DNA of 25,995 nt from assembly GCA_037128175.1 (NCBI GenBank), contig JBAXWY010000041.1, positions 1 to 25,995 of the forward strand, written 5' to 3'. Source of the DNA: Methanothrix sp. GTDB taxonomy: Archaea > Halobacteriota > Methanosarcinia > Methanotrichales > Methanotrichaceae. The stretch's first letter is position 1. Each line of letters starts with the position of its first letter. The position numbers and the translations under genes are program-made. The notes beneath the pieces were generated by a model that worked only from the letters and a program-made list of their open reading frames with translations, did not search any database and had not been told where the DNA came from. Positions 273 to 17,190 of the stretch are shown here, one piece after another.

Positions 273-1229
273 TTATCCCATCTTCTCCCTCACCGGCGCC
301 AGTATCTCGTTCATGCACTCTGCGCAGGCCTTTTTGAGATCCATGGGGTGCAGGGCCCCGCTCACGTAGTCCGCTTCCATTGTCTCGTAGTTCTGATAAG
401 AAACATCCCCGCCGAACTTGGCAGGTCTCTTGATAGTCATCCCCGCCTCAATCCTGGGGAAGACGTGATACTTGCATATGGCCAGCACGGGATTGTTCTC
501 CACCACTTTTGCGGGACAAAAGGCGCTCTTGATCTTCTTTTCCACGTCCTCTGCCGGCTCGTCCACAGCAATGTTGTTTCCCTTGGAGGAGGACATCTTC
601 TCTCCATTCAGGCCGGCGATGAGAGGCGTGTGCATGCACACCGGCGCGGGCAGGCCCAGGCGGGGCAGCTCCTCACGAGCCAGCATGTGAATCTTCCTCT
701 GATCAATGCCGCCCACTGCCAGGTCGATCTTCAAATCGGCGATGTCGATGGCTTGCATGAGCGGGTAGATCATCTGCGATACCATGGGGTTCTCCGCACT
801 TCTGGAGACCTCATCCATGCTCCTCTTGGCTCGGTTGAGCGTGGTGTTCCTGGCTATCTGCAGAATCTTAAGCATGTAGTCCGGCTTGAGCTGATAATCT
901 GTGCCGTAGACAAACTCCGTTCTCTCCGGGTCTAAGCCCAGGGCCATGAAGCAGTCCCGGTTGTAGTCGGCAATTTTTCTCACCTCTTCCAGGGTGCCCT
1001 TCTCATTGAGGAAGGCATGCAGATCGGCTAAAAGGACGACGACGTCAAAGCCCACCTTCTGCAGGTCCAGGAGCTTATTGACCGTGAGCATGTGGCCCAG
1101 ATGTACCTTGCCGCTCGTCTCGTAGCCCACGTAGGCGCGCGGCCTGCGGCTCTGCTCCAAAAGGCCCTTGAGTTCGTCTACCGTCACTATCTCTTCAGTA
1201 TTTCTCATCACCAGCTCAAGCTTATCCAA
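273..1229 (-). CDS. tyrS: Tyrosine--tRNA ligase (archaeal type)
   Basis: AYVGYETSGKVHLGH (HIGH-like), YPLMQAID, GGIDQRKIHM and KMSSS motifs. Start moved from 1301 to TTG at 1229 (MDKLELV...), which is preceded by a GGTGA RBS-like sequence. Confidence 0.95.
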   Translation of the reverse strand: MDKLELVMRNTEEIVTVDELKGLLEQSRRPRAYVGYETSGKVHLGHMLTVNKLLDLQKVGFDVVVLLADLHAFLNEKGTLEEVRKIADYNRDCFMALGLDPERTEFVYGTDYQLKPDYMLKILQIARNTTLNRAKRSMDEVSRSAENPMVSQMIYPLMQAIDIADLKIDLAVGGIDQRKIHMLAREELPRLGLPAPVCMHTPLIAGLNGEKMSSSKGNNIAVDEPAEDVEKKIKSAFCPAKVVENNPVLAICKYHVFPRIEAGMTIKRPAKFGGDVSYQNYETMEADYVSGALHPMDLKKACAECMNEILAPVREKMG

Positions 1230-1329
1230 TGCACATTCACCAATCCTCACAAGAGGAATGGGGATGTATAATGCTTTTGGTTCATGTTCATAGGAAAACA
1301 ATTAATACTACCGTTGTTGATGGGCTGCC

Positions 1330-1512
1330 ATGCATAGGGGTAACTTTAGCCTGCCACGCCCTGGCTTAAGCCGCGAGAAGAATCTGGTTCTCATACTACT
1401 GGCCATCCTGGTGGCCCTGGTTCTCTGGGGAACCTTCTGGTGGCTGATGAGAATAGTGCTCTTTGTAGTAGTAGTCTACATTATCTATCAGGTGCTCAAG
1501 CAATACGTTTAG
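1330..1512 (+). CDS. Small membrane protein (two hydrophobic helices)
   Basis: 60-aa ORF with two long hydrophobic stretches, filling the gap between tyrS and mobA. Confidence 0.6.
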   Translation: MHRGNFSLPRPGLSREKNLVLILLAILVALVLWGTFWWLMRIVLFVVVVYIIYQVLKQYV

Positions 1513-1540
1513 AAATTGGTCTCATCCCGGCTCTACCTAT

Positions 1541-2188
1541 CTACCCGGGCCCGTGATCCAGCCAGAGCGCTCTGGCCTTTTCCAGATCTTCTCTGGTATT
1601 CAGATTAAAGAAGGTGAGAAGATCGGGATCCAGGGGGCGCAGCAGATCTACACAGACACGTCTGACGCGTAACTCCTGTAGTGGTGCATGAATTCTGCGC
1701 TCCGCCTTTTCCATAGCCCTCTCGCAGGCCAGCAGCATTTTTTTGCGGTGGTAGACGCAGTGAAGCGGCTCGAAAAAACCATTACTCTGCACGGGAACCG
1801 CCGCGTCAAAGTCCTCTTCGCCGGCCAGCTCGAAGAGCCTCTCGATTACCTGAAGGTTTAAAAACGGCAGATCGCACCCCGTGGCGAAGGCAAAGTTCCC
1901 ACGCGCTTCCTTCATCCCGGCAGAGAGGCCCGCCACCGGCCCAAATCCCGCCACGCGATCCCAGGTGAAGGTGACTTTCGGCTCCGCGGGAGGGGCAAAA
2001 TCCGAGATTATCCCTTCCAGGCGTTCGGCATGAGCCCCATCCCGGGCCACTACTACTATTTCATCAGCCGTCATGCTGAGCCGCTCCGCAGTCCAGCAGA
2101 TGAGCGGCTTTCCTTCGAACTCCAGGAGCGACTTTTCCGCTCCCAGGCGGCGGCCGTTTCCGCCGGCCAGGATCACTGCGGAGCGCAT
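1541..2188 (-). CDS. mobA: Molybdenum cofactor guanylyltransferase
   Basis: AVILAGGNGRRLGAEKSLL, GPVAGL, GCDLPFL, EPLHCVY and FFNLNTREDL motifs. Confidence 0.9.
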   Translation of the reverse strand: MRSAVILAGGNGRRLGAEKSLLEFEGKPLICWTAERLSMTADEIVVVARDGAHAERLEGIISDFAPPAEPKVTFTWDRVAGFGPVAGLSAGMKEARGNFAFATGCDLPFLNLQVIERLFELAGEEDFDAAVPVQSNGFFEPLHCVYHRKKMLLACERAMEKAERRIHAPLQELRVRRVCVDLLRPLDPDLLTFFNLNTREDLEKARALWLDHGPG

Positions 2189-2820
2189 AGCCTCCAGCCG
2201 CTCTCTTTGCAGTCCTCCTCCAGAGCCTTTAGAAGGGCTGCTTTGGGATTGGATTGCTTGACAAGGCTATGCAAAACAATATGCTCACGGCTTACCGATG
2301 CCGTACTCTCCCCTGCTTTGACAAGAATGCTCTTGATGAGAACCTCGTTTACCCTTCCCCCCGCCCGGCCCACCTCTTCATAGGCCAGCTTCTGAGTGAT
2401 GCGGTTGCCAAAGACTATGCATCCCACGCCGTCCCAGGCTCTGATCTTCGCTTCGCCGCCGCCTGCGCCTTTCTCACCTGCACCATCTGCGGCGTCGGCA
2501 TCTTCCCTGCATATTACGTCCACCTGCAAACTGGACCCAGGTGTGAGGTAAATTCTTCTGCGCCGGGAGAGCCTGGCCGATATTTCGGTGACCTCTCCCA
2601 CCAGCAAATCCCCCCGCCTCCAGACCTTCTCCCTGCCGTCAGAGATCTGCAAAGTGGCGCCTAGCTCTCTGGCTCTGTCTGCCAGCTCCTGATCATTTTT
2701 GATCTGCCCGGAGTAAAGCTCCTCTTCCAGCTTGGGGCAAGGGCCTACAAAAGCGATGGCCCGCCGATCGGCTCCAATTACTGCCTCCCGGCTGGCTGCC
2801 AGTGCTATGACCAGGGACAT
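2173..2820 (-). CDS. DUF2121 / Connectase-like protein (proteasome beta-subunit-related Ntn fold of methanogens)
   Basis: N-terminal (M)SLVIA..AVIGADRRAIAF, LEEELYSGQIKNDQEL, LVGEV, RRRIY, FGN..TQK and TASVS match the MJ0548/DUF2121 family as I recall it. Ser1 is the expected nucleophile after Met removal. Confidence 0.8.
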   Translation of the reverse strand: MSLVIALAASREAVIGADRRAIAFVGPCPKLEEELYSGQIKNDQELADRARELGATLQISDGREKVWRRGDLLVGEVTEISARLSRRRRIYLTPGSSLQVDVICREDADAADGAGEKGAGGGEAKIRAWDGVGCIVFGNRITQKLAYEEVGRAGGRVNEVLIKSILVKAGESTASVSREHIVLHSLVKQSNPKAALLKALEEDCKESGWRLCAPQ

Positions 2821-2865
2821 ATCAAATCCTCTTCATTTTAGTTGCGGATGTCATGTCGGTTAGGC

Positions 2866-2905
2866 GCTTTGTGCGTCCTTTGTGAGCTTTGTGATCTTTG
2901 TGGTT
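2866..2905 (-). repeat. ~9-bp periodic CACAAAG element
   Basis: Minus strand reads AACCACAAAG-AT-CACAAAG-CT-CACAAAG-GACG-CACAAAG-C, between folD and the Connectase gene. Confidence 0.8.
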
Positions 2906-2926
2906 TATTTTCGCTGCATTTTATGC

Positions 2927-3766
2927 TTACTTAGCCTGGTTCTCCGTCGCCAAAACGGTCTGGGAGAGCAGCATGGCCACCGTGAGCGGTCCTACCCCGC
3001 CCGGAACTGGGGTTATGGCCGAGGCAATATCCTTTACGGCCTCGTAATCCACATCGCCCACCGTCTTATCTCCAACCCGGTTGATGCCCACATCAAAGAC
3101 AATGGCCCCTGGCCGGACCATCTCCTTCTTGATCAGGGCCGGAACGCCTGCGGCTACTACCAATATCTCAGCATCTCGGGTGTGCTCGGCCAGATCTTTG
3201 GTAAAGACGTGGCAGACCTGCACCGTAGCATTGCGGCTGAGCAGCATGGCCGCCAGAGGCTTGCCGACAACATTGCTGTGGCCCACAATCACGGCCTCCG
3301 CCCCCTCCAGCTTCTTGCCCAGCCGCTCCAGGGCATAGATGATTCCCCTTGGTGTGCAGGGTACGAGGCGCTCCGTGCCCAGAAGAAGAGCGCCCATGTT
3401 CACCGGATGAAATCCGTCCACATCCTTCTCAGGCATTATGCTCATCATGGCCCTTTGCGGGCTCTGGCCTCTCGGCAGCGGCAGTTGCAGGAGAATGCCG
3501 TTTATGTCCGGACGGTCGTTCAGCTCCAATATTCTGGCTATGAGCTCTTCTTCAGAGCTGTTCTCGGGAAGCACCACATTCTCGGATCGAATGCCTACCC
3601 TAGTGCAGGCGGAATGCTTGAGCCGGATGTACATCTCTGAGGCGGGATTTTCTCCCACCAGCACTGTTGCCAGGCCCGGCACAATTGCCCTCTCTGCCAG
3701 CTTTTTTACCCTTCGGGCCGTCTCGACCTCAACCTCCGCCGCCAGAGCTTTTCCATCGATTATCAT
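2927..3766 (-). CDS. folD: Bifunctional methylenetetrahydrofolate dehydrogenase/cyclohydrolase
   Basis: [32 protein letters not shown] and [15 protein letters not shown] at 3766 overlaps the glyA stop (ATGA). Confidence 0.95.
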
Positions 3767-5010
3767 GCCAGGTCCGGATAGAGCGGGAACTGCCCGCACA
3801 GCTCACTGGCCTGTCTGCGAACGTCGGCTATCGTCTCTTCGTTCGTAATATCGCGAATCACTGAGGTGATCATATCGGCGATCTGCACCATCTGTTTTTC
3901 CATCATGCCCCTGGTTGTCATGGCAGGTGTGCCGATGCGAATGCCGCTGGTGACGAATGGCGTGGCCGGATCGAAGGGGATCATATTCTTGTTCAGGGTT
4001 ATGCCCGCTCTCTCGAGGGTTTCGTCGGCCACTTTACCGGTTATGCCTTCTTTGATCAGCTTGACCATCATGAGGTGGTTGTCCGTGCCGCCTGAGACCA
4101 GATCAAACTTGTTTTCCAGAAGCCTGTTCGCCAGGACACGAGCGTTCTTGACCACCTGGAACTGGTATTCTTTGAACTCGGGTGCCAGCGCTTCCTTGAA
4201 AGCCACCGCTTTTGCGGCTATGGCATGCATAAAAGGCCCGCCCTGAGTGCCCGGGAAGACGGATCTATCTACGGCAGCAGCAAGCTCCTCTTTACAAATG
4301 ATCAGTGCGCCCCTCGGTCCGCGCAGGGTCTTATGAGTAGTAGTGGTAACGATATCCGAGTAGGGCACGGGTGAGGGATGCGCGCCCACGGCACACAGGC
4401 CCGCGATGTGAGCTATGTCGGCCATGACCTTTGCCCCGACCTCATCGGCAATCTCGCGGACGACCTTGAAGTCTATGGTTCTGGGATAGCTGGAGGCGCC
4501 CACCACTATGAGCTGCGGCCTGTTCTTTCTGGCTATGGCCGCCATCTCGGAGTAGTCGAGCATCTCTGTATCGGGCGAGACGCTGTAAGGCACGATTTTG
4601 TACATCTTGCCCGAGAAGTTGACCGGGCTGCCGTGCGAGAGGTGGCCGCCGTGGGCCAGATTCATGCCCATGATGGTGTCGCCAAGCTTGAGCACGGAAA
4701 AGTAGGCTGCCATATTGGCTTGGGTGCCGCTCACCGGCTGCACATTGACATGCTCTGCGCCGGCAAAGAGCTTCTTGCAGCGCTCGCGAGCCAGATTCTC
4801 TGCCACGTCCACACAGGCCGTGCCGCGGTAGTAGCGTTTGCCTGGGTAGCCTTCCGCATACTTGTTGGTCATGACGCAGCCCTGGGCTTCCATGACGGCT
4901 CTACTTGCGAAGTTCTCAGAGGCGATCAGAATTATGTTATTTCGCTGCCGCTCCAGCTCAGCCTGGATCGCGGCTGCGATTTCGGGATCTTCAACGCTTA
5001 AAGGCTTCAA
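3763..5010 (-). CDS. glyA: Serine hydroxymethyltransferase
   Basis: [40 protein letters not shown] (PLP lysine), GGTDNHL and SGIRIGTPA. Confidence 0.97.
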
Positions 5011-5078
5011 TCAAATCACCGGTATATCATATCAGGATTGGAGGAGATGCAATGAGGAGAGCAAAATAGATTATGGTG

Positions 5079-5127
5079 GTAAACTACCCAATTCCTCCCA
5101 CTCCCTGAAGAGAGCGGGTCTTCCTGG
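5079..5127 (+). mobile_element. Isolated IS200/IS605-type end hairpin (remnant)
   Basis: CAATTCCTCCCACTCCCTGAAGAGAGCGGGTCTTCC: CCCACTC/GAGCGGG stem around CCTGAA. Shares the ATTCxTCCC..CCTGAA..GGGTCTTC layout with the element at about 25920-25950 (minus strand). Confidence 0.5.
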
Positions 5128-5194
5128 TGTTTTACTTTGACACCGTTTTGTAGAAACCATAACTCTTTATTATCTGCAGTTTTAAGGACATGAG

Positions 5195-5647
5195 ATGCTA
5201 AAGCGTGCCAGGATTATTGCCGATTACCAGTTTGGTAGAGGTGCAGGCGAGGCCCTTTTTCTTGATGACACAACCTACAGCCTCTCCAAAACGCGGCGGC
5301 TTAGGTACCTCTACTCGGGAAAGGAGAGGATCGTCACAGTTCGGGCCAGCGACAACCTCTTGACGCTCAGCATGATGGGCGCAAGACGGCTGCACGCCCG
5401 GTTCGAAAGCCCCCATCTGCGGGTTGTGGCTTCGGAGGATGCCGCGCCATTCGTCGCCAAAGGCGGCAATCTCTTTGCCAAGCATGTTTTAAGCGTGGAC
5501 CCACAGATTCGGGCTGGGGAAGAGGTGCTGGTTGTGAACTCTCAGGATCAACTGCTGGCCACGGGAACAGCCGTGCTCGCGCCTGAGGAGATGCTACAGA
5601 TCAAGCGCGGCATCGCGGTTGCTGCCAGAAAGGCCGCCGAGCATTGA
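5195..5647 (+). CDS. PUA-domain protein, likely the stand-alone C-terminal subunit of split archaeosine tRNA-guanine transglycosylase
   Basis: IADYQFGRGAGEALF, TVRASDNLLTLSMMGARRL, then PUA (FVAKGGNLFAKHV..IRAGEEVLVV..LLATG). Confidence 0.8.
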   Translation: MLKRARIIADYQFGRGAGEALFLDDTTYSLSKTRRLRYLYSGKERIVTVRASDNLLTLSMMGARRLHARFESPHLRVVASEDAAPFVAKGGNLFAKHVLSVDPQIRAGEEVLVVNSQDQLLATGTAVLAPEEMLQIKRGIAVAARKAAEH

Positions 5648-5681
5648 TCGGGCAGCCTTTTTCATCTTTTCTTTATAATTA

Positions 5682-6842
5682 TCACACTCTTCCCAGAGCT
5701 GATATGCCTCTGAACCTCTCCACCGCTTCGGCTATACACTGGGCCACATAGTCTACCTCTTCCGTTGTGTTCGATCGGCCCATGGTGATTCTCAGGGAGC
5801 CGTGGCAATCTTCCGGCTGGAGGCCCAAAGAGAGCAGCACGTGGCTGGGCTGCAGCTTATGCGAGGAGCAGGCCGATCCCGTGGAGACGGCTATGCCTTT
5901 GGAGTCGAGGAAAAGCAGCAGCGATTCGCCTTCCACATATTTGAAGCCGAAATTCAGGCTTCCGGGAAGCCTTCCCTTCATGGTTCCATTGATCCAGGCA
6001 TCCTTGACCTTTCCCAGGACCTGGCTTACAAGTTGATCCCGCAGCTTTGTCAGCCTCTGCCCCTCTGCGGCCATGCCTTCACAACACAGCTCTGCCGCTT
6101 TTGCCAGGCCGACGATGCCCGCCACATTCTCCGTTCCCGAGCGCAGGCCTCTTTCGTGCCCGCCGCCCTGGACGATGCTCTCCAGTTTTGTGCCCCGGCG
6201 AATGTAGAGCGCTCCCACGCCTTTGGGCCCGTAGAGCTTGTGGGCGGAAAGAGAGAGCAGATCGACACCAAGGGCGTTTACATCTGTGGGAATCTTGCCC
6301 ACGCTCTGCACGGCATCAGTATGCAGGTAGATGTCCTTTTCCGCAGCCAGTTTGCCAATCTCCTCCAGCGGCTGGATGGTTCCTATCTCGTTGTTGGCGT
6401 GCATGACCGAGATGAGAATGGTGTCGGGGCGAATGGCCGCCTCAAGTGTTGCCAGGTCCACCAGTCCCTCGCTCGTCACGGGCAGGTAGGTGACGGCAAA
6501 GCCCTCTTTTTCCAGTTTGCGGCAGGTTTCCAGGATGGCAGGATGCTCGACGCAGGTCGTGATAATATGTTTGCCCTTATCCTTATTGCGCCGAGCTATG
6601 CCTTTTAAGGCTAAATTGTCGGACTCTGTGCCCCCCGAAGTGAAGATGATCTCCTCCGGCATCGCTCCCAGGAGTTTTGCCACCTTCTCTCGGGATTCTT
6701 CCAGAGCCTCTTTTGCCTCCAGGCCAAAGCTGTGCAGGCTGGAGGCATTGCCGAACTTATCGGAAAGGTAGGGCATCATGGCCTGCAAGACCTGCGCCGC
6801 CACGGGAGTGGTGGCAGAGTGATCCATGTAAATACGCTTCAT
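5682..6842 (-). CDS. iscS: Cysteine desulfurase (IscS/NifS, group I)
   Basis: IYMDHSATTP, FTSGGTESDN, HTDAVQ, SAHKLYGPKG and STGSACSS (catalytic Cys). Start moved to ATG at 6842. Confidence 0.95.
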   Translation of the reverse strand: MKRIYMDHSATTPVAAQVLQAMMPYLSDKFGNASSLHSFGLEAKEALEESREKVAKLLGAMPEEIIFTSGGTESDNLALKGIARRNKDKGKHIITTCVEHPAILETCRKLEKEGFAVTYLPVTSEGLVDLATLEAAIRPDTILISVMHANNEIGTIQPLEEIGKLAAEKDIYLHTDAVQSVGKIPTDVNALGVDLLSLSAHKLYGPKGVGALYIRRGTKLESIVQGGGHERGLRSGTENVAGIVGLAKAAELCCEGMAAEGQRLTKLRDQLVSQVLGKVKDAWINGTMKGRLPGSLNFGFKYVEGESLLLFLDSKGIAVSTGSACSSHKLQPSHVLLSLGLQPEDCHGSLRITMGRSNTTEEVDYVAQCIAEAVERFRGISALGRV

Positions 6843-6942
6843 CGCTGAGAAATATGGGATGCTAAGGTAAATAGATGACGAACTTGGACCTGCCAATCCA
6901 GTATGAGAAACTATAAGTATGCAGCAAAAGGACGGGGAAATC

Positions 6943-7194
6943 ATGAATCTGTCCATCCCATTATTTTCAACGCCGCTATTGATTGCCGCGGCCCTCATCG
7001 CTTTGGGCTTCATAACCTATCTCTTCTCGGCCAGGCTTGGTGTGATTCTCATGGGCGCCGGCAGCGTGATCATGGGCGCGGTGGTCATATTCGATCTGCC
7101 CAACGGCATGGGACTGCAAAGCCTGGTTCTCTTCGGAATTACTGTGCTGGTGGGGGGATGGATGATGTATGTGGGAGTGAAGAACAGAGGATAA
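6943..7194 (+). CDS. Small membrane protein (about three TM helices)
   Basis: Highly hydrophobic ORF. Probable start at ATG 6943 (alternative 6919). Confidence 0.7.
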   Translation: MNLSIPLFSTPLLIAAALIALGFITYLFSARLGVILMGAGSVIMGAVVIFDLPNGMGLQSLVLFGITVLVGGWMMYVGVKNRG

Positions 7195-7263
7195 TAGATC
7201 TATCAAGAATAAATTTATATATCATCATTTACTATTAATATCTCGATCAGAAGGGATGTTAAA

Positions 7264-8181
7264 ATGAATCGAATTTCAGCTCCGGTAAAGATACTGCTAT
7301 TGCTAATTTTTTTTATATCTCTGACGTCAATTGCAGCTATGGCACAGGGTCCGGCCACCATCTATTTCGCAGATGCAATGGAAAACCCAGGAAAGGTTTA
7401 CTCGTCTGCTATGAGCGGAAGTGAGAATGTCTATTTCGCCCGCCCGTCCGGAAACATCTACACCTTTGCCTTCCATCCTTATGTGCCAGAGAAGCTATAC
7501 TATGTGAATGCTAATGATAATAAGATCTACCTGGCCACAAGGACCACAGGCGGGACCTGGACTACTACGGATCAGGTGGCCTACACGCATAGCACTTATA
7601 TCAGGGACCTGGAATACTACCCAACTGATTCCGGCGGACTTGAGATCTATTTTAGCGAGTCTAGTGGAGCTGGCGCAGACGGTCAGATCTACCTCTTATC
7701 AGGAGGGGCTGCAACTCCCTATTATACCGTGAGGCTCTCAGATGTCGATGGTTTTTGGGCAGGAGATTTCATCCATGACTCGGATGGCAATCTTTACCTC
7801 AGCTCAGGAAACCAGATCCCTGCCTCTATCTATCGAGTATCCGGCGGAACTGTCAGCAGGATCTACACCAGCAATAATGCTCCAATAACCGGCATGGCCT
7901 ACCGGGATGGAAGCATTTACTATGCCAATTGGGGCAATGAGATCCACCGCCTGGTGCTCTCAACGCTGGTTGATTCAGTCGTCAGGTCTCAGCCCGGACA
8001 CACCTGGATCTCAGATGTAGGACTTTCATCATTCGGCGCTACGACTGGGGTATTGGCAGACGCATCCGGCATCAGAAACTCAGGAATAGTGCCAAATGTC
8101 ATGGGAAAGATAGGGATGTCAAAGAACCCAATTGACCAATTGAATCCTCAGCCTGAGCCACCCAAACCCAAGTATTATTAA
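7264..8181 (+). CDS. Secreted beta-propeller-like protein with C-terminal LNPQPEPP motif
   Basis: Signal peptide (KILLLLIFFISLTSIAAMA), repeated blade-like units (KLYYVN, EIYFSE, DSDGNLYLSS, RDGSIYYANW), and upstream TTTATATA. Confidence 0.75.
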   Translation: MNRISAPVKILLLLIFFISLTSIAAMAQGPATIYFADAMENPGKVYSSAMSGSENVYFARPSGNIYTFAFHPYVPEKLYYVNANDNKIYLATRTTGGTWTTTDQVAYTHSTYIRDLEYYPTDSGGLEIYFSESSGAGADGQIYLLSGGAATPYYTVRLSDVDGFWAGDFIHDSDGNLYLSSGNQIPASIYRVSGGTVSRIYTSNNAPITGMAYRDGSIYYANWGNEIHRLVLSTLVDSVVRSQPGHTWISDVGLSSFGATTGVLADASGIRNSGIVPNVMGKIGMSKNPIDQLNPQPEPPKPKYY

Positions 8182-8188
8182 GAATTGG

Positions 8189-8237
8189 AAGAGGGGCGAA
8201 AAAAGACCCAATTGTCCAGTGTTTTTTGTCCCCTCTT
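8189..8237 (+). terminator. Inverted repeat / putative terminator
   Basis: AAGAGGGG-CG-AAAAAA ... TTTTTT-GT-CCCCTCTT followed by T-runs, just downstream of the stop codon. Confidence 0.5.
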
Positions 8238-8350
8238 TTGGCACATGTTTTTGGGCTCTGCACCTTTGGCCACCCGTCCGCTAAAAGATATCACCGTCCG
8301 ATAGCATTGAGGCTCGGAGAGGAAGCGAAGCCTTGTCCCCGGGACCATGG

Positions 8351-8364
8351 GAAATCCTTATATG
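8351..8364 (+). promoter_or_regulatory. BRE/TATA box of the tRNA gene
   Basis: GAAATCCTTATATG about 30-40 nt upstream of the tRNA 5' end. Confidence 0.55.
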
Positions 8365-8393
8365 CCACCTCTGCATCCTAGGGTGCGCCATGC

Positions 8394-8466
8394 GGGGCCA
8401 TAGGGTAGCCTGGTATCCTACAGGACTGGGGGTCCTGTGACCGGCGTTCAAATCGCCGTGGCCCCA
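8394..8466 (+). tRNA. tRNA-Pro (GGG)
   Basis: Acceptor stem GGGGCCA/TGGCCCC plus discriminator A; anticodon arm CAGGA-CTGGGGG-TCCTG; T arm CGGCG-TTCAAAT-CGCCG. No intron and no encoded CCA. Confidence 0.95.
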
Positions 8467-8563
8467 TTAAAGTGCTCTTTCGTTAGCGATTTTTAATTAA
8501 GTTGAGTCTTTATGTGTCACAGGATTGTGTCCTTTTCTCCCAGGAGATTTATCTTTGCAACTA

Positions 8564-8704
8564 ATGAATATAAATGAGTAGATAAAAAATACAACTGATT
8601 TTGAACCTGCCTTGAAGAGATTCCGGCGCTATCTTGAAGGCCAAGGAATGATGGAAGCCACTGTAACCGGCTATTTAGGCAACGTAGGAAGATATCTCAA
8701 ATTT
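8564..8704 (+). pseudogene. Tyrosine recombinase/integrase N-terminal (SAM-like) remnant
   Basis: Frame reads MNINE*IKNTTDFEPALKRFRRYLEGQGMMEATVTGYLGNVGRYLKF, fitting the F..YL..G....T...Y...V..FL pattern of integrase N-termini. In-frame TAG at 8579, truncated at about 8704, and located 100 bp after a tRNA. Confidence 0.65.
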
Positions 8705-9045
8705 TTACCCCTTGGATTCTCCTGGCAATCAGGAAGCTATTTGTAGGCGGAGTCAGTACATCTTGAATCCCGATTATTACCATTGTGGGTGCACCAATGG
8801 CATTCAAGCGTCCATCCACATCGAAAGCCATGGGACTAAAGCTGGGCCTCGTAGGCCGAAAGCGTGCCCGGAAAAGACTGGCCTGAATCTTCCGCCCCAC
8901 TGTATCCGGATGAGCATAAATGAAATATCCGATGCCATTTTGCGGGGCTATTCCCGCCTCTCACCTACTCCCTCCCGAAACATAGGCAGGATCAATCCCA
9001 AGGCCCTTCATCAGGCCCACAGTATCCCCGGCCACCCGGCTCAAT
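8697..9045 (-). pseudogene. Alpha/beta hydrolase remnant
   Basis: Fragments in different ORFs: AGDTVGLMKGLGIDPAYVSGGS* (degenerate nucleophile elbow) and FDVDGRLNAIGAPTMVIIGIQDVLTPPTNSFLIARRIQG. N-terminus and catalytic His region are missing. Confidence 0.65.
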
Positions 9046-9069
9046 GGCACAACCGGGGCCGGGCTGACC

Positions 9070-9176
9070 GTCGCGCCCCGCCCGCGTGCTCCCGTGCCCG
9101 TGAGCGAGTGGCAGCTGCCGGGCACCCGGGCCCGCCTGGCCGCCACCCACAGGGCTGCCGGGCCGGGAGGACGAGA
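9070..9176. repeat. GC-rich hairpin repeat, copy 1
   Basis: CGCGTGCTCCCGTGCCCGTGAGCGAGTGGCAGCTGCCGGGCACCCGGGCCCGCCTGG..., aligns along its length with copy 2. Confidence 0.85.
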
Positions 9177-9264
9177 GTCGCCAGGCTCCGGATGGATTTT
9201 CATGAGACCTTGGCGGGAAAAATTGTTTCTTGCTGTATCGAGTTTGCAATTATAAAGATAGAGT

Positions 9265-9428
9265 CCTCTGTGAGTCCTCCGTGCGCTCTGTGTCTCTGTG
9301 GTGGTAGTCCGTAAACCGTTGGTTATAACCAGTGGCTAACGACGTTTTCAACCACAGAGTTCACAGAGTACGCACAGAGCGACGAACTAACAACTGGAAA
9401 ACCATAGTAACCTGAGGTTAGCCACTGG
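9265..9428. repeat. Two head-to-head CACAGAG-periodic elements joined at a GGTTATAACC palindrome
   Basis: CTCTGTG repeats (9265-9305) and CACAGAG repeats (9351-9380) around the palindrome at 9321-9330. Perfect 12-bp inverted repeat CCAGTGGCTAAC (9329-9340) / GTTAGCCACTGG (9417-9428). Confidence 0.8.
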
Positions 9429-9464
9429 AAATAGCTAAGAGTCGCTTTAGTTTCAGCTTTGCCT

Positions 9465-9572
9465 CTCGCCCCCCGCCCGCGCGTGCTCCTGCGCCCGTAA
9501 GCGAGTGGCAGCAGCCGGGCTCCGGGCCCGCCTGGGCCGCCACTCACAGGGCTGCCAGGCCGGGAGGGCGAG
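9465..9572. repeat. GC-rich hairpin repeat, copy 2
   Basis: Nested pairings CTCGCCC/GGGCGAG, CCTG/CAGG, GCCC/GGGC and GAGTGGC/GCCACTC. Confidence 0.85.
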
Positions 9573-9628
9573 CGCCTGCTAGCAAACCCAAGGCCAAAAG
9601 AGTCCACAATGACGCCATGATTAGGTTT

Positions 9629-10021
9629 TTATTTTAACTCGGGTATCTTGCGTCCTTTTTCAGTGCGGTCAAAATCTGCATCGAAGCTTATTATCTGCAG
9701 GCCGTACTTCTGTGCGACGGCGTATTGGTAGGAATCATCAAAATCCAAACGGAACCTTTTCGAGACTTCTGCCAGAGCGAGAACCTCTTCCGGATCCAAC
9801 CCGATCACAGTTATTCCGGTCTTTATTATTACGTCCTTCACGAAGCTGACGTAGGTTTCATGTCTATTCCTCTGGAAAAGAAAAACACCAATGGAATGAA
9901 GTGAGAAATCCGTTATAAAAAGATCTGTGGATGGATTTTCGATAAACAAATGCTTGGCGGCCTTGCTCTTTTCTCGTTGCAGCAAGATTTACAAAAATAT
10001 ATTCGTGTCCAGGAGGTACAT
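9629..10021 (-). pseudogene. PIN-domain (VapC-like) toxin with a premature stop at codon 11
   Basis: ATG at 10021 overlaps the antitoxin stop (TGATG). Reads MYLLDTNIFL*ILLQREK with TAA at 9991-9989; the rest is intact (ITDFSLHSIG, LDFDDSYQY, IISFDADFD). Confidence 0.85.
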
Positions 10022-10227
10022 CAGGCTCCTCGCATCTTTCCGATCTCGTGCTGGAGTTCTACAGAAGAATACTGCTCACCCAGATCCGCAAGGGCTCCTT
10101 CCCAGTCAAAAGCCGGCACCTTTTGCTTCTTTTTAGATCTTTTCTCCAGCAAGAATTCTGCATAGCTCCGAACTTCTTTTTGAATGTCAAGAGGCAATTG
10201 CTCAACGAACCTAGCGAGGGTTGTCAT
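10021..10227 (-). CDS. DUF2281-family antitoxin
   Basis: QLPLDIQKEVRSYAEFLLEK...FDWEGALADL..YSSVELQH, translationally coupled to the PIN gene. Confidence 0.8.
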   Translation of the reverse strand: MTTLARFVEQLPLDIQKEVRSYAEFLLEKRSKKKQKVPAFDWEGALADLGEQYSSVELQHEIGKMRGA

Positions 10228-10314
10228 TTTTCTCAATAAAATATAGGATGCCCAAGCTTTTAATATTTATCGGCAAGGATGATTTCTCCTAATTTTTAAC
10301 TTAGTTTTTCCTGA

Positions 10315-10414
10315 GCCCGCACGCGTGGCTCCCGCGCCCGTAAGCGAGCGGACGCAGCCGGGCTCCGGGCCCGCCCGCACACGTTCGCACTTGGGCACGG
10401 GAGGCCGGTCGGGC
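10315..10414. repeat. GC-rich hairpin repeat, copy 3
   Basis: Shares GCGCCCGTAAGCGAG and GCAGCCGGGCTCCGGGCCCGCC with copy 2. The 3' arm is diverged but still complementary to the 5' arm. Confidence 0.8.
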
Positions 10415-10498
10415 CTGAGGGTCAGGCGGAGGCGGCTTTTCCAAGGGGCTGGGTTTTGGAGACGATTGCGATTTGCGGTTAATATTAGCAGATAATTA

Positions 10499-10556
10499 TA
10501 ACCTGAAAACTAACGATTTCACCACAAAGGCACGAAGGCACAAAGGACGCGCAAAG
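10499..10556 (+). repeat. CACAAAG-periodic element with TAACC leader
   Basis: TAACCTGAAAACTAACGATTTC-ACCACAAAGG-CACGAAGG-CACAAAGGACGCGCAAAG. Confidence 0.75.
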
Positions 10557-10594
10557 AGATTCGAGGCAGTCTCCGGCTTGACGATCCTTGCGGG

Positions 10595-10726
10595 CCGTGG
10601 GCAGGCCTCGCCCGGCTCTCGCTCCTGGCCGCTGCCATAGGCCTCCGGGCTGCGCCGCTCATCAGGGCAGACTGGCTTGCCTGGCGGGGACTAGGGGGCA
10701 GGAGGCCAGGCGGGCCAAGACCACGG
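10595..10726. repeat. GC-rich long imperfect hairpin 4
   Basis: CCGTGG/CCACGG, GGCCTCGCCCGGC/GCCAGGCGGGCC (imperfect) and CTCCTG/CAGGAG nested pairings. Confidence 0.6.
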
Positions 10727-10784
10727 ATTCACGCGAAGGCGCGAAGTTCCGATGAAAGAAGGACAATTATGGGCTGCTGCGCCG

Positions 10785-10862
10785 CCTGCCAGGCGGGCCC
10801 GGCTGCCCGAACACGCGTGCTCGGGAGAGGCGACAGCCGGGCCCTGCGCTGCATAGGGCAGG
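10785..10862. repeat. GC-rich hairpin 5
   Basis: Perfect 11-bp inverted repeat GGGCCCGGCTG (10795-10805) / CAGCCGGGCCC (10834-10844) enclosing CCCGA-ACACGCGTGC-TCGGG; outer CCTGCC/GGCAGG. Confidence 0.7.
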
Positions 10863-10915
10863 AAGATTTCATGGCGCTGAAAGGAGGACTGGACAACTGG
10901 ATTGCAGCCAATGGA
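10841..10915 (+). pseudogene. Possible rhodanese-domain C-terminal fragment
   Basis: ALRCIGQEDFMALKGGLDNWIAANG resembles the rhodanese L...G...v..L.GG...W motif; no active-site loop upstream. Confidence 0.4.
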
Positions 10916-17070: not shown

Positions 17071-17107
17071 GAACACCACCAACGTCAGAATCAAACCTTA
17101 TTTATAT

Positions 17108-17190
17108 TTTTCCATTTTTTTGTTAGTAGCTCTGTGCGTTCTCTGTGAACTCTGTGCCTCTGTGGTGGAAACGTCATTAGACGCTGGTTA
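17108..17190 (-). repeat. CACAGAG-periodic element, close copy of 9326-9400
   Basis: Minus strand reads TAACCAGCGTCTAATGACGTTTCCACCACAGAGGCACAGAGTTCACAGAGAACGCACAGAGCTACTAACAA..TGGAAAA. Confidence 0.85.

Follow-up and report, generated by a model that had tools for sequence, protein, structure and literature searches.

Repeats in a 25,995-bp contig of a Methanothrix genome (contig C41 of genome G000, analyzed whole and referred to here as the window) probably serve as the junctions of a chromosomal array of small gene cassettes. Two kinds of repeat are concerned, a GC-rich unit of about 100 nt that we call W and a second module, M, and sequence comparison favors reading both as substrates of recombination at the DNA level rather than as folded RNA. 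The genome (2.96 Mb in 98 contigs, 50.8% GC, 99.8% complete) was compared with others of the genus, most of them fragmented assemblies of the kind in which repeats are frequently lost. An earlier note on this DNA had described three of the repeats as hairpins whose pairing is preserved by compensatory changes, and had proposed either an unrecognized structured non-coding RNA (ncRNA) or a single-stranded DNA site for recombination or transposition.

The three GC-rich, same-strand copies described in that note are indeed present, at about positions 9076-9177, 9473-9574 and 10316-10375, and the motifs that it quoted are found in the sequence. A W profile (nhmmer) places copy 1 at 9083-9177 (E 1e-22), copy 2 at 9474-9574 (E 2e-22) and the 5' half only of copy 3 at 10321-10373 (model positions 5-58 of 102), all on the plus strand. 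Copies 1 and 2 are 83% identical in an ungapped alignment of 100 nt (9076-9175 versus 9473-9572) and 88% identical over 108 nt by blastn (E 1.3e-30); copies 2 and 3 match at 88.5% over only 61 nt (E 7e-15). A 48-nt core (9088-9135, 9485-9532 and 10328-10375) is common to all three, with 81-92% identity. Their GC contents are 81, 76 and 73%, respectively, compared to the genome value given above, and additional GC-rich units that the note did not list occur at 10562-10727 and 10760-10868. Across the whole genome there are 591 islands of at least 72% GC over 80 nt (68 kb in total), most of them unrelated to W or M. Blastn links 84 of the islands to others, and 407 stand as singletons.

Copies 2 and 3 flank a toxin-antitoxin pair, as had been noted. 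Both genes lie on the minus strand: a PIN-domain (VapC-like) toxin gene at 9629-10021, identified from its translation (Pfam PF01850, E 3e-11), and a DUF2281 antitoxin gene at 10021-10236 (PF10047, E 3.5e-14). The antitoxin stop codon and the PIN start codon share one base. W copy 2 begins 55 nt past the PIN stop codon. The PIN gene is interrupted at codon 11 by a TAA in frame (9989-9991, minus strand) and is otherwise 94% identical to an intact copy in the array at locus L043. Were translation to restart downstream, the PIN protein would be missing its N-terminal LLDTN stretch. The antitoxin gene is undamaged, and the pair looks like a decaying toxin-antitoxin cassette.

W is a family restricted in its distribution and regular in its arrangement. 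Copy 2 has matches in 25 of the 58 other genomes of the genus. Of 24 same-genus genomes, 17 have a match to the region 10300-10900; among 16 genomes that represent other genera of the class there is none. The W profile identified 65 copies in the window and eight further loci, 64 of them on the majority strand of their own locus. Each cassette carries a single W, and the 55 segments that separate successive W copies are mostly 0.3-1.2 kb in length, with five above 4 kb. Single-linkage clustering sorted these segments into ten recurrent types and seven singletons. Type A (11 segments) encodes PIN and DUF2281, type B (10) a HicB-like UPF0150 protein and HicA, type D (5) ParE, type E (4) DUF4258 and an MqsA-like zinc finger, type F (4) an acylphosphatase domain, and type J (2) DUF433; types C (5) and G (3) contain no open reading frame (ORF) and carry a short dispersed sequence, the CACAGAG element, and types H and I have two segments each. 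Toxin-antitoxin cassettes make up at least 30 of the 55 segments and account for four recurrent types (A, B, D and E). The type F cassettes, found in three genomes (L046 11005-11664 and 12890-13159; L048 6381-6923; L051 3343-3927), are an unexpected cargo beside toxin-antitoxin pairs. No match to window positions 9060-10430 was present in plasmid and phage collections, and no description of these repeats was found in the literature searched, a body in which subscription journals are largely outside coverage.

Cassette order differs between all nine arrays. Written as strings of types, with a dot for an unclassified segment, the arrays read (G B. C D B E B G) in G016, (G A) in G000, (. C A E D B) in G065, (H F I C F. 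B A) in G012, (B B D A) in G062, (B A J D B A J D. E A A) in G064, (A B. F) in G020, (C A C I H F E) in G015 and (. A.) in G051. The window locus is syntenic with the arrays of G012 and G015, in that the same MBL-fold, transglutaminase-like and VWA genes adjoin all three; the content of the arrays differs. At a finer scale, the PIN-DUF2281 cassette of the window recurs in G065 and G064 at about 90% identity with different neighbors, the likeness beginning where the W downstream of PIN has its 5' edge and stopping just short of the next W. In both of those genomes a PIN cassette adjoins a DUF4258 cassette, with the order swapped between the two. G064 also has the block B A J D duplicated in tandem over 3.3 kb (97.6 and 94.5% identity; L044, contig G064:C6, 9864-13297 and 13196-16548), with a W at each end and at the junction.

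The W copies themselves are mosaic. In five of 45 W copies, the five being from other genomes and otherwise normal, the usual 5' end is replaced by a reverse-complemented M, and four of these five stand directly to the right of a HicBA cassette, and their own right-hand neighbors are of type E, of type G, of type A and an unclassified segment. The M-type half is absent from all seven W copies that stand to the left of a HicBA cassette. Because the M-type half is tied to the right side of HicBA, the 5' half of W appears to travel with the cassette on its left. The center of W tends to be genome-specific, and identity between copies is higher within a locus (78.0%) than between loci (72.5%), a gap reached in none of 2000 permutations. 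A column-by-column scan for association of W with the type of its left or right cassette had low power and was no more than suggestive.

Copy 3 is best read, from its sequence, as two 5' arms joined head to head rather than as a product of compensatory evolution. Its W half is followed by an M module (10374-10421, plus strand) that ends in GGAGGCCGGTCGGGCCTGAGGG and was recognized by motif scan, nhmmer, arm complementarity and the fold z-scores of copy 3 (-3.1 and -3.5). The strong palindrome of this copy arises because a W 5' half is fused to M, an inverted counterpart, and the GCGAGCG/CGTTCGC pairing that had been taken for a compensating replacement belongs to this different module. The same kind of W-M join is seen in the hybrid copies of other genomes and in a copy on contig C17 of G000. 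Over a stretch of 35 nt, copy 1's 5' arm and copy 3's 3' arm show 71% complementarity, and blast aligns M with W over 50 nt (82%, E 3.6e-6). A direct alignment of reverse-complemented M to W scored 27, weakly above shuffled sequences (18.5 +/- 3.1, maximum 31), and because this signal is weak it is the hybrid copies, the blast match and the arm complementarity on which we base the relation between the two modules.

Beyond copy 3, the M module is followed by a conserved spacer (10422-10560, plus strand) with an AT-rich palindrome at about 10483-10510 and CACAAAG heptamers at 10523-10545; this spacer also follows M units on contig C44. Two further M-kind GC-rich units occupy 10560-10870 on the plus strand, one with an M-like motif at 10668-10716 and one degenerate (10760-10868). 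A motif scan at up to four mismatches found 26 M sites in G000, mostly clustered on contigs C44 and C14, where M-type arrays occur at C44 18800-24191 (nine M units) and C14 32800-36300 (seven), each on one strand. Judged by eye from their ORFs, these arrays separate PIN, HicAB, RelE-like, HEPN/MNT and DUF4258 pairs, and Pfam confirms the same families in relatives. Several M units abut a stop codon within a few bases, and contig C44 ends inside its array.

The proposal that W adopts a structure kept by selection did not withstand family-level analysis. For copies 1, 2 and 3, RNA fold z-scores were -0.86, -0.52 and -3.14 on the plus strand and -0.56, -1.97 and -3.50 on the minus strand; with DNA parameters they were +0.04, -0.20 and -0.49 on the plus strand and -0.95, -2.59 and -1.74 on the minus strand. 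Only copy 3 stands out in single-sequence folding with RNA parameters, and copies 1 and 2, which had been thought to form nested stems like the third, fold no better than their composition gives. The mean z-score of 45 full-length W copies relative to dinucleotide shuffles was -0.22 on the plus strand and +0.12 on the minus strand, with values below -2 in two of the 45 and in none, respectively.

To look for covariation we aligned 40 of the 45 copies, omitting the five with a different 5' half. RNAalifold returned only seven consensus pairs (-2.35 kcal/mol). When the minimum-energy structure of copy 2 was projected on the alignment, 67.8% of cells were paired compared to 67.7% in shuffled controls, with a covariation score of 0.077 in both cases (equalled or exceeded in 255 of 500 shuffles). 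For a nested structure resembling the one proposed earlier, the figures were 78.1% versus 77.8% paired cells and a covariation score of 0.059 versus 0.058 (equalled or exceeded in 184 of 500). A mutual-information scan of the alignment found no complementary covarying columns. The changes between copies 1 and 2 that had been interpreted as compensatory involve positions that vary independently of their partners: this is so for the T/C of GCTCC(T/C) and the A/G of GCC(A/G)GGCC. At alignment pair 44-120 there are 24 C-G combinations and 13 unpaired ones, and at pair 37-125 there are 18 C-G and nine U-G. An inverted 11-mer (CTCCCG.GCCCG / CGGGC.CGGGAG), lying a few bases inside the conserved ends of W, is paired in 90% of cells; this helix is well paired because both of its arms are conserved, and its variable positions change independently between partners. 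Runs of GGG in the 3' half of W resemble those of a G-quadruplex, but window copy 1 and window copy 2 each have one run interrupted, as does a fair-sized minority of the 40 aligned copies, which includes at least the 13 with an A at column 120. The note's third ground for refutation, a match to a known MITE or Rfam family, did not arise: Rfam has no match at its gathering threshold anywhere in the window, and the best sub-threshold hits (E 0.9-1.6, at permissive E-values) are to unrelated families. W failed both the covariation test and the shuffle test that the note had set, and the inference of a selected structure is therefore largely refuted.

We infer that the differences in cassette order, the mosaic copies, the W-bounded duplication and the likeness of W within genomes are caused by recombination inside W. 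In the scheme that we favor, W and M would sit where one small cassette joins the next, most of the cassettes being type II toxin-antitoxin pairs that carry their own promoters. Exchange between W copies in the same orientation would insert, delete, duplicate or reorder cassettes, and exchange between inverted copies would generate head-to-head chimeras such as window copy 3. In our judgment the agent would be host homologous recombination or gene conversion, about twice as likely as a dedicated trans-acting recombinase. As a speculation, the extreme GC content of W could be a by-product of frequent gene conversion. The earlier suggestion of a recombination site fits this evidence, and its further supposition that the site acts as a single strand or hairpin finds no support.

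Several considerations weigh against this scheme. Repeats of about 100 bp that are about 75-90% alike are poor substrates for homologous recombination. The position of the crossover is drawn from one cassette type together with the low-powered association scan, the PIN cassette comparison fits equally well with a whole W travelling along with its cassette, and the likeness of W within loci could come from local duplication alone. The conserved 11-bp inverted repeat, paired at the frequency given above, makes a hairpin or a protein-bound inverted site possible, and z-scores are a weak test because shuffled sequences at 80% GC fold well too. Moreover, no tyrosine or serine recombinase domain was found among the ORFs scanned in nine array loci (a scan that excluded L052 and one giant ORF), and the argument is comparative throughout, with no recombination event observed directly.

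The strongest competing explanation holds that a dedicated site-specific recombination system, analogous to an integron, uses W and M as its sites, and that a recombinase encoded elsewhere excises cassettes as circles and inserts them at W. An integron attC site has two core boxes, RYYYAAC (R'') at its 5' end and GTTRRRY (R') at its 3' end, and clusters of attC sites without an integrase are known as CALINs. The arrays described here share much with sedentary chromosomal integrons and CALINs: their cassettes are short and accessory, each with one co-oriented repeat of about 100 bp; toxin-antitoxin cassettes are common and some cassettes lack ORFs; order is shuffled between relatives; repeats are more alike within than between genomes; and an integrase is often not nearby. 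The genome-specific center of W, flanked by conserved inverted 11-mers, would also suit a recombinase that needs matching crossover regions. W arrays consist of co-oriented sites, one per cassette, and are spaced as CALINs are (at least two sites less than 4 kb apart) by the rule quoted in Ghaly et al. (2022; PMC9668308), whose attC models detected integrons and CALINs in archaea. Its Data S1 lists only one Methanotrichales genome, of the genus Fen-7, with two attCs and no IntI.

By contrast, three of the four defining integron features tested (boxes, conserved hairpin and IntI) are lacking. A box search detected neither RYYYAAC nor GTTRRRY at the ends of the 40-copy consensus (CGCGTGCTCCCGCGCCCGTGAGCGAGCG...CAGGGCTGCCGGGCCGGGAGGGCGAGCGCC), which have no AAC or GTT, and no integron integrase is present in G000 (its best hit to TIGR02249 scores 40.7 bits, where the cut-off is 265). 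Unlike attC, W keeps its sequence rather than its structure, and exchange seems to occur inside the repeat and not at its 3' edge; unlike integron cassettes, those of W arrays carry promoters of their own, between repeats of 75-80% GC. No serine recombinase was found in G000, and its six matches to tyrosine recombinases (PF00589) all lie on contigs other than those with arrays. The scanned ORFs of the nine array loci do include transposases of the IS66, IS630, IS4, IS21, IS110 and IS256 kinds. An IS4-family transposase is the only recurrent large neighbor, beside three arrays, and was rejected as the recombinase since it has no homologue in G000. We therefore regard a dedicated system as unlikely, and would assign a similarly low probability to the broader idea that the genus runs a cassette capture-and-shuffle system of integron-independent origin, in which a recombinase encoded elsewhere would act on W and M at a few chromosomal hotspots, so that toxin-antitoxin and other small accessory cassettes are stored and reordered there.

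It is very unlikely that W is a selfish element, like a MITE (miniature inverted-repeat transposable element) or a repetitive extragenic palindromic (REP) sequence, that transposes and piles up in toxin-antitoxin islands. W is small (about 100 bp) and non-coding and has imperfect inverted ends, as MITEs do, and like REPs and bacterial interspersed mosaic elements (BIMEs) it is GC-rich, extragenic, partly palindromic, lineage-specific and located near the 3' ends of genes. Unlike MITEs, W has neither a target-site duplication nor a dispersed distribution, and no parent insertion sequence with the same ends was found. At 41 copies, the flanks of a given W share words averaging 3.78 nt, compared to 3.69 +/- 0.14 for mismatched flanks. 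Of the 29 W or M hits in G000, which fall on 10 contigs, 25 lie in five clusters (on C14, C44, C41, C17 and C19), and the copies stand one per cassette, on one strand. REPs are 20-40 nt long, occur in hundreds of dispersed copies and are tied to a RAYT gene; W units, in contrast, are about 100 nt, are confined to a few arrays and are unlinked to Y1 transposase genes. Five Y1_Tnp matches do exist in G000, on C8, C28, C31 and C14 (on the last, some 20 kb away from the array), and none has a W or M hit beside it.

The MITE-like element of this region is instead the one that lies between W copies 1 and 2, the CACAGAG element, which forms the sole content of the ORF-less type G cassette there. The window copy (9218-9447, of an element about 255 nt long) is AT-rich and palindromic and has CACAGAG heptamer arrays around GGTTATAACC. 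The element looks MITE-like from its sequence, with sharp ends, imperfect terminal inverted repeats of about 17 nt, and divergent CACAGAG/CACAAAG arrays that flank its center. Its pattern has 110 hits in the genome, 20 full-length copies align well and several are at contig ends; half copies occur in the window at 10483-10560, 17103-17168 and 2867-2902. We would guess that its TTATAA center could be a two-way archaeal promoter. A metatranscriptome (X1), available only as contigs that represent 9% of the sampled words and in which ends and strand are not resolvable and DNA carry-over is possible, gave a depth of 2-6 for W and of 88-182, the highest, for the CACAGAG element, each summed over copies and related organisms. 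Two of its contigs join W copy 1 to W copy 2, skipping 402 and 428 nt.

Another idea, hard to sustain as a full account, is that W acts in cis on the cassette transcripts, as a 3' end, a terminator, an insulator or a determinant of mRNA stability, and is simply carried along when cassettes are copied. The distance of W from the window PIN gene, and an M unit that begins 2 nt after a HepT-like gene on C44, are what such an element would predict, and 15 of the 21 Pfam-supported ORFs in the arrays at L043 and L044 are consistently antisense to W. HicBA cassettes have the opposite arrangement, however, being consistently co-oriented with W, and ORF-less cassettes carry W too. The W consensus lacks a T-run of the kind used by archaeal terminators, and a cis role would leave the mosaic copies and shuffled order unexplained. 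Such a role can nonetheless coexist with recombination at W, and as a separate explanation we hold it to be very improbable. Least probable of all is a structured ncRNA or single-stranded hairpin site, which could call on the z-scores of copy 3, those of the minus strand of copy 2 (-2.0 for RNA and -2.6 for DNA) and the paired 11-mer, and which fails because pairing, covariation and fold energies across the family equal those of shuffles and because two fused modules explain the palindrome of copy 3.

The left flank of the repeat-rich region begins with a tRNA-Pro(GGG) gene (8394-8466, plus strand; ARAGORN), followed by a 44-amino-acid remnant of the N-terminal SAM-like domain of a tyrosine integrase (8612-8746, plus strand; PF13495, E 0.009, below the cut-off). 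A 202-amino-acid truncated homologue adjoins tRNA-Pro in G020 (L056 1116-1724) where there is no array, and this excluded the remnant as the recombinase of the array; judging from these sequences, the remnant is associated with tRNA-Pro and not with the array. A full-length homologue of 313 amino acids from this tRNA-Pro-associated family lies at the end of contig C5 of G000 (L071 4686-5627). Between the remnant and W copy 1 is a non-coding repeated module with broken frames (8796-9070), which blastn aligns to G012 at 80-83% in two places and which also has matches in G065, G015 and G020, adjoining W copies in other genomes. Read by eye, it looks like a decayed fragment of an alpha/beta-hydrolase gene on the minus strand. 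On G012:C1 (L046 and L053), the counterpart of window positions 273-8479, a segment with tRNA-Pro at its end, stands inverted with respect to both the array and the genes on the array's far side, and an IS4-family transposase gene sits at the junction.

A new structured RNA with compensatory changes was an attractive false lead, now corrected, and the case shows that a palindrome in a very GC-rich repeat should not be trusted until covariation has been tested across its family. If the reading of W and M as cassette junctions is right, a major acetate-using lineage of methanogens would possess integron-like cassette arrays with neither attC nor IntI. Surveys that depend on attC models or IntI would then miss a class of gene-shuffling platforms, and the arrays of Methanothrix would offer a concrete system for asking how cassette arrays arise.

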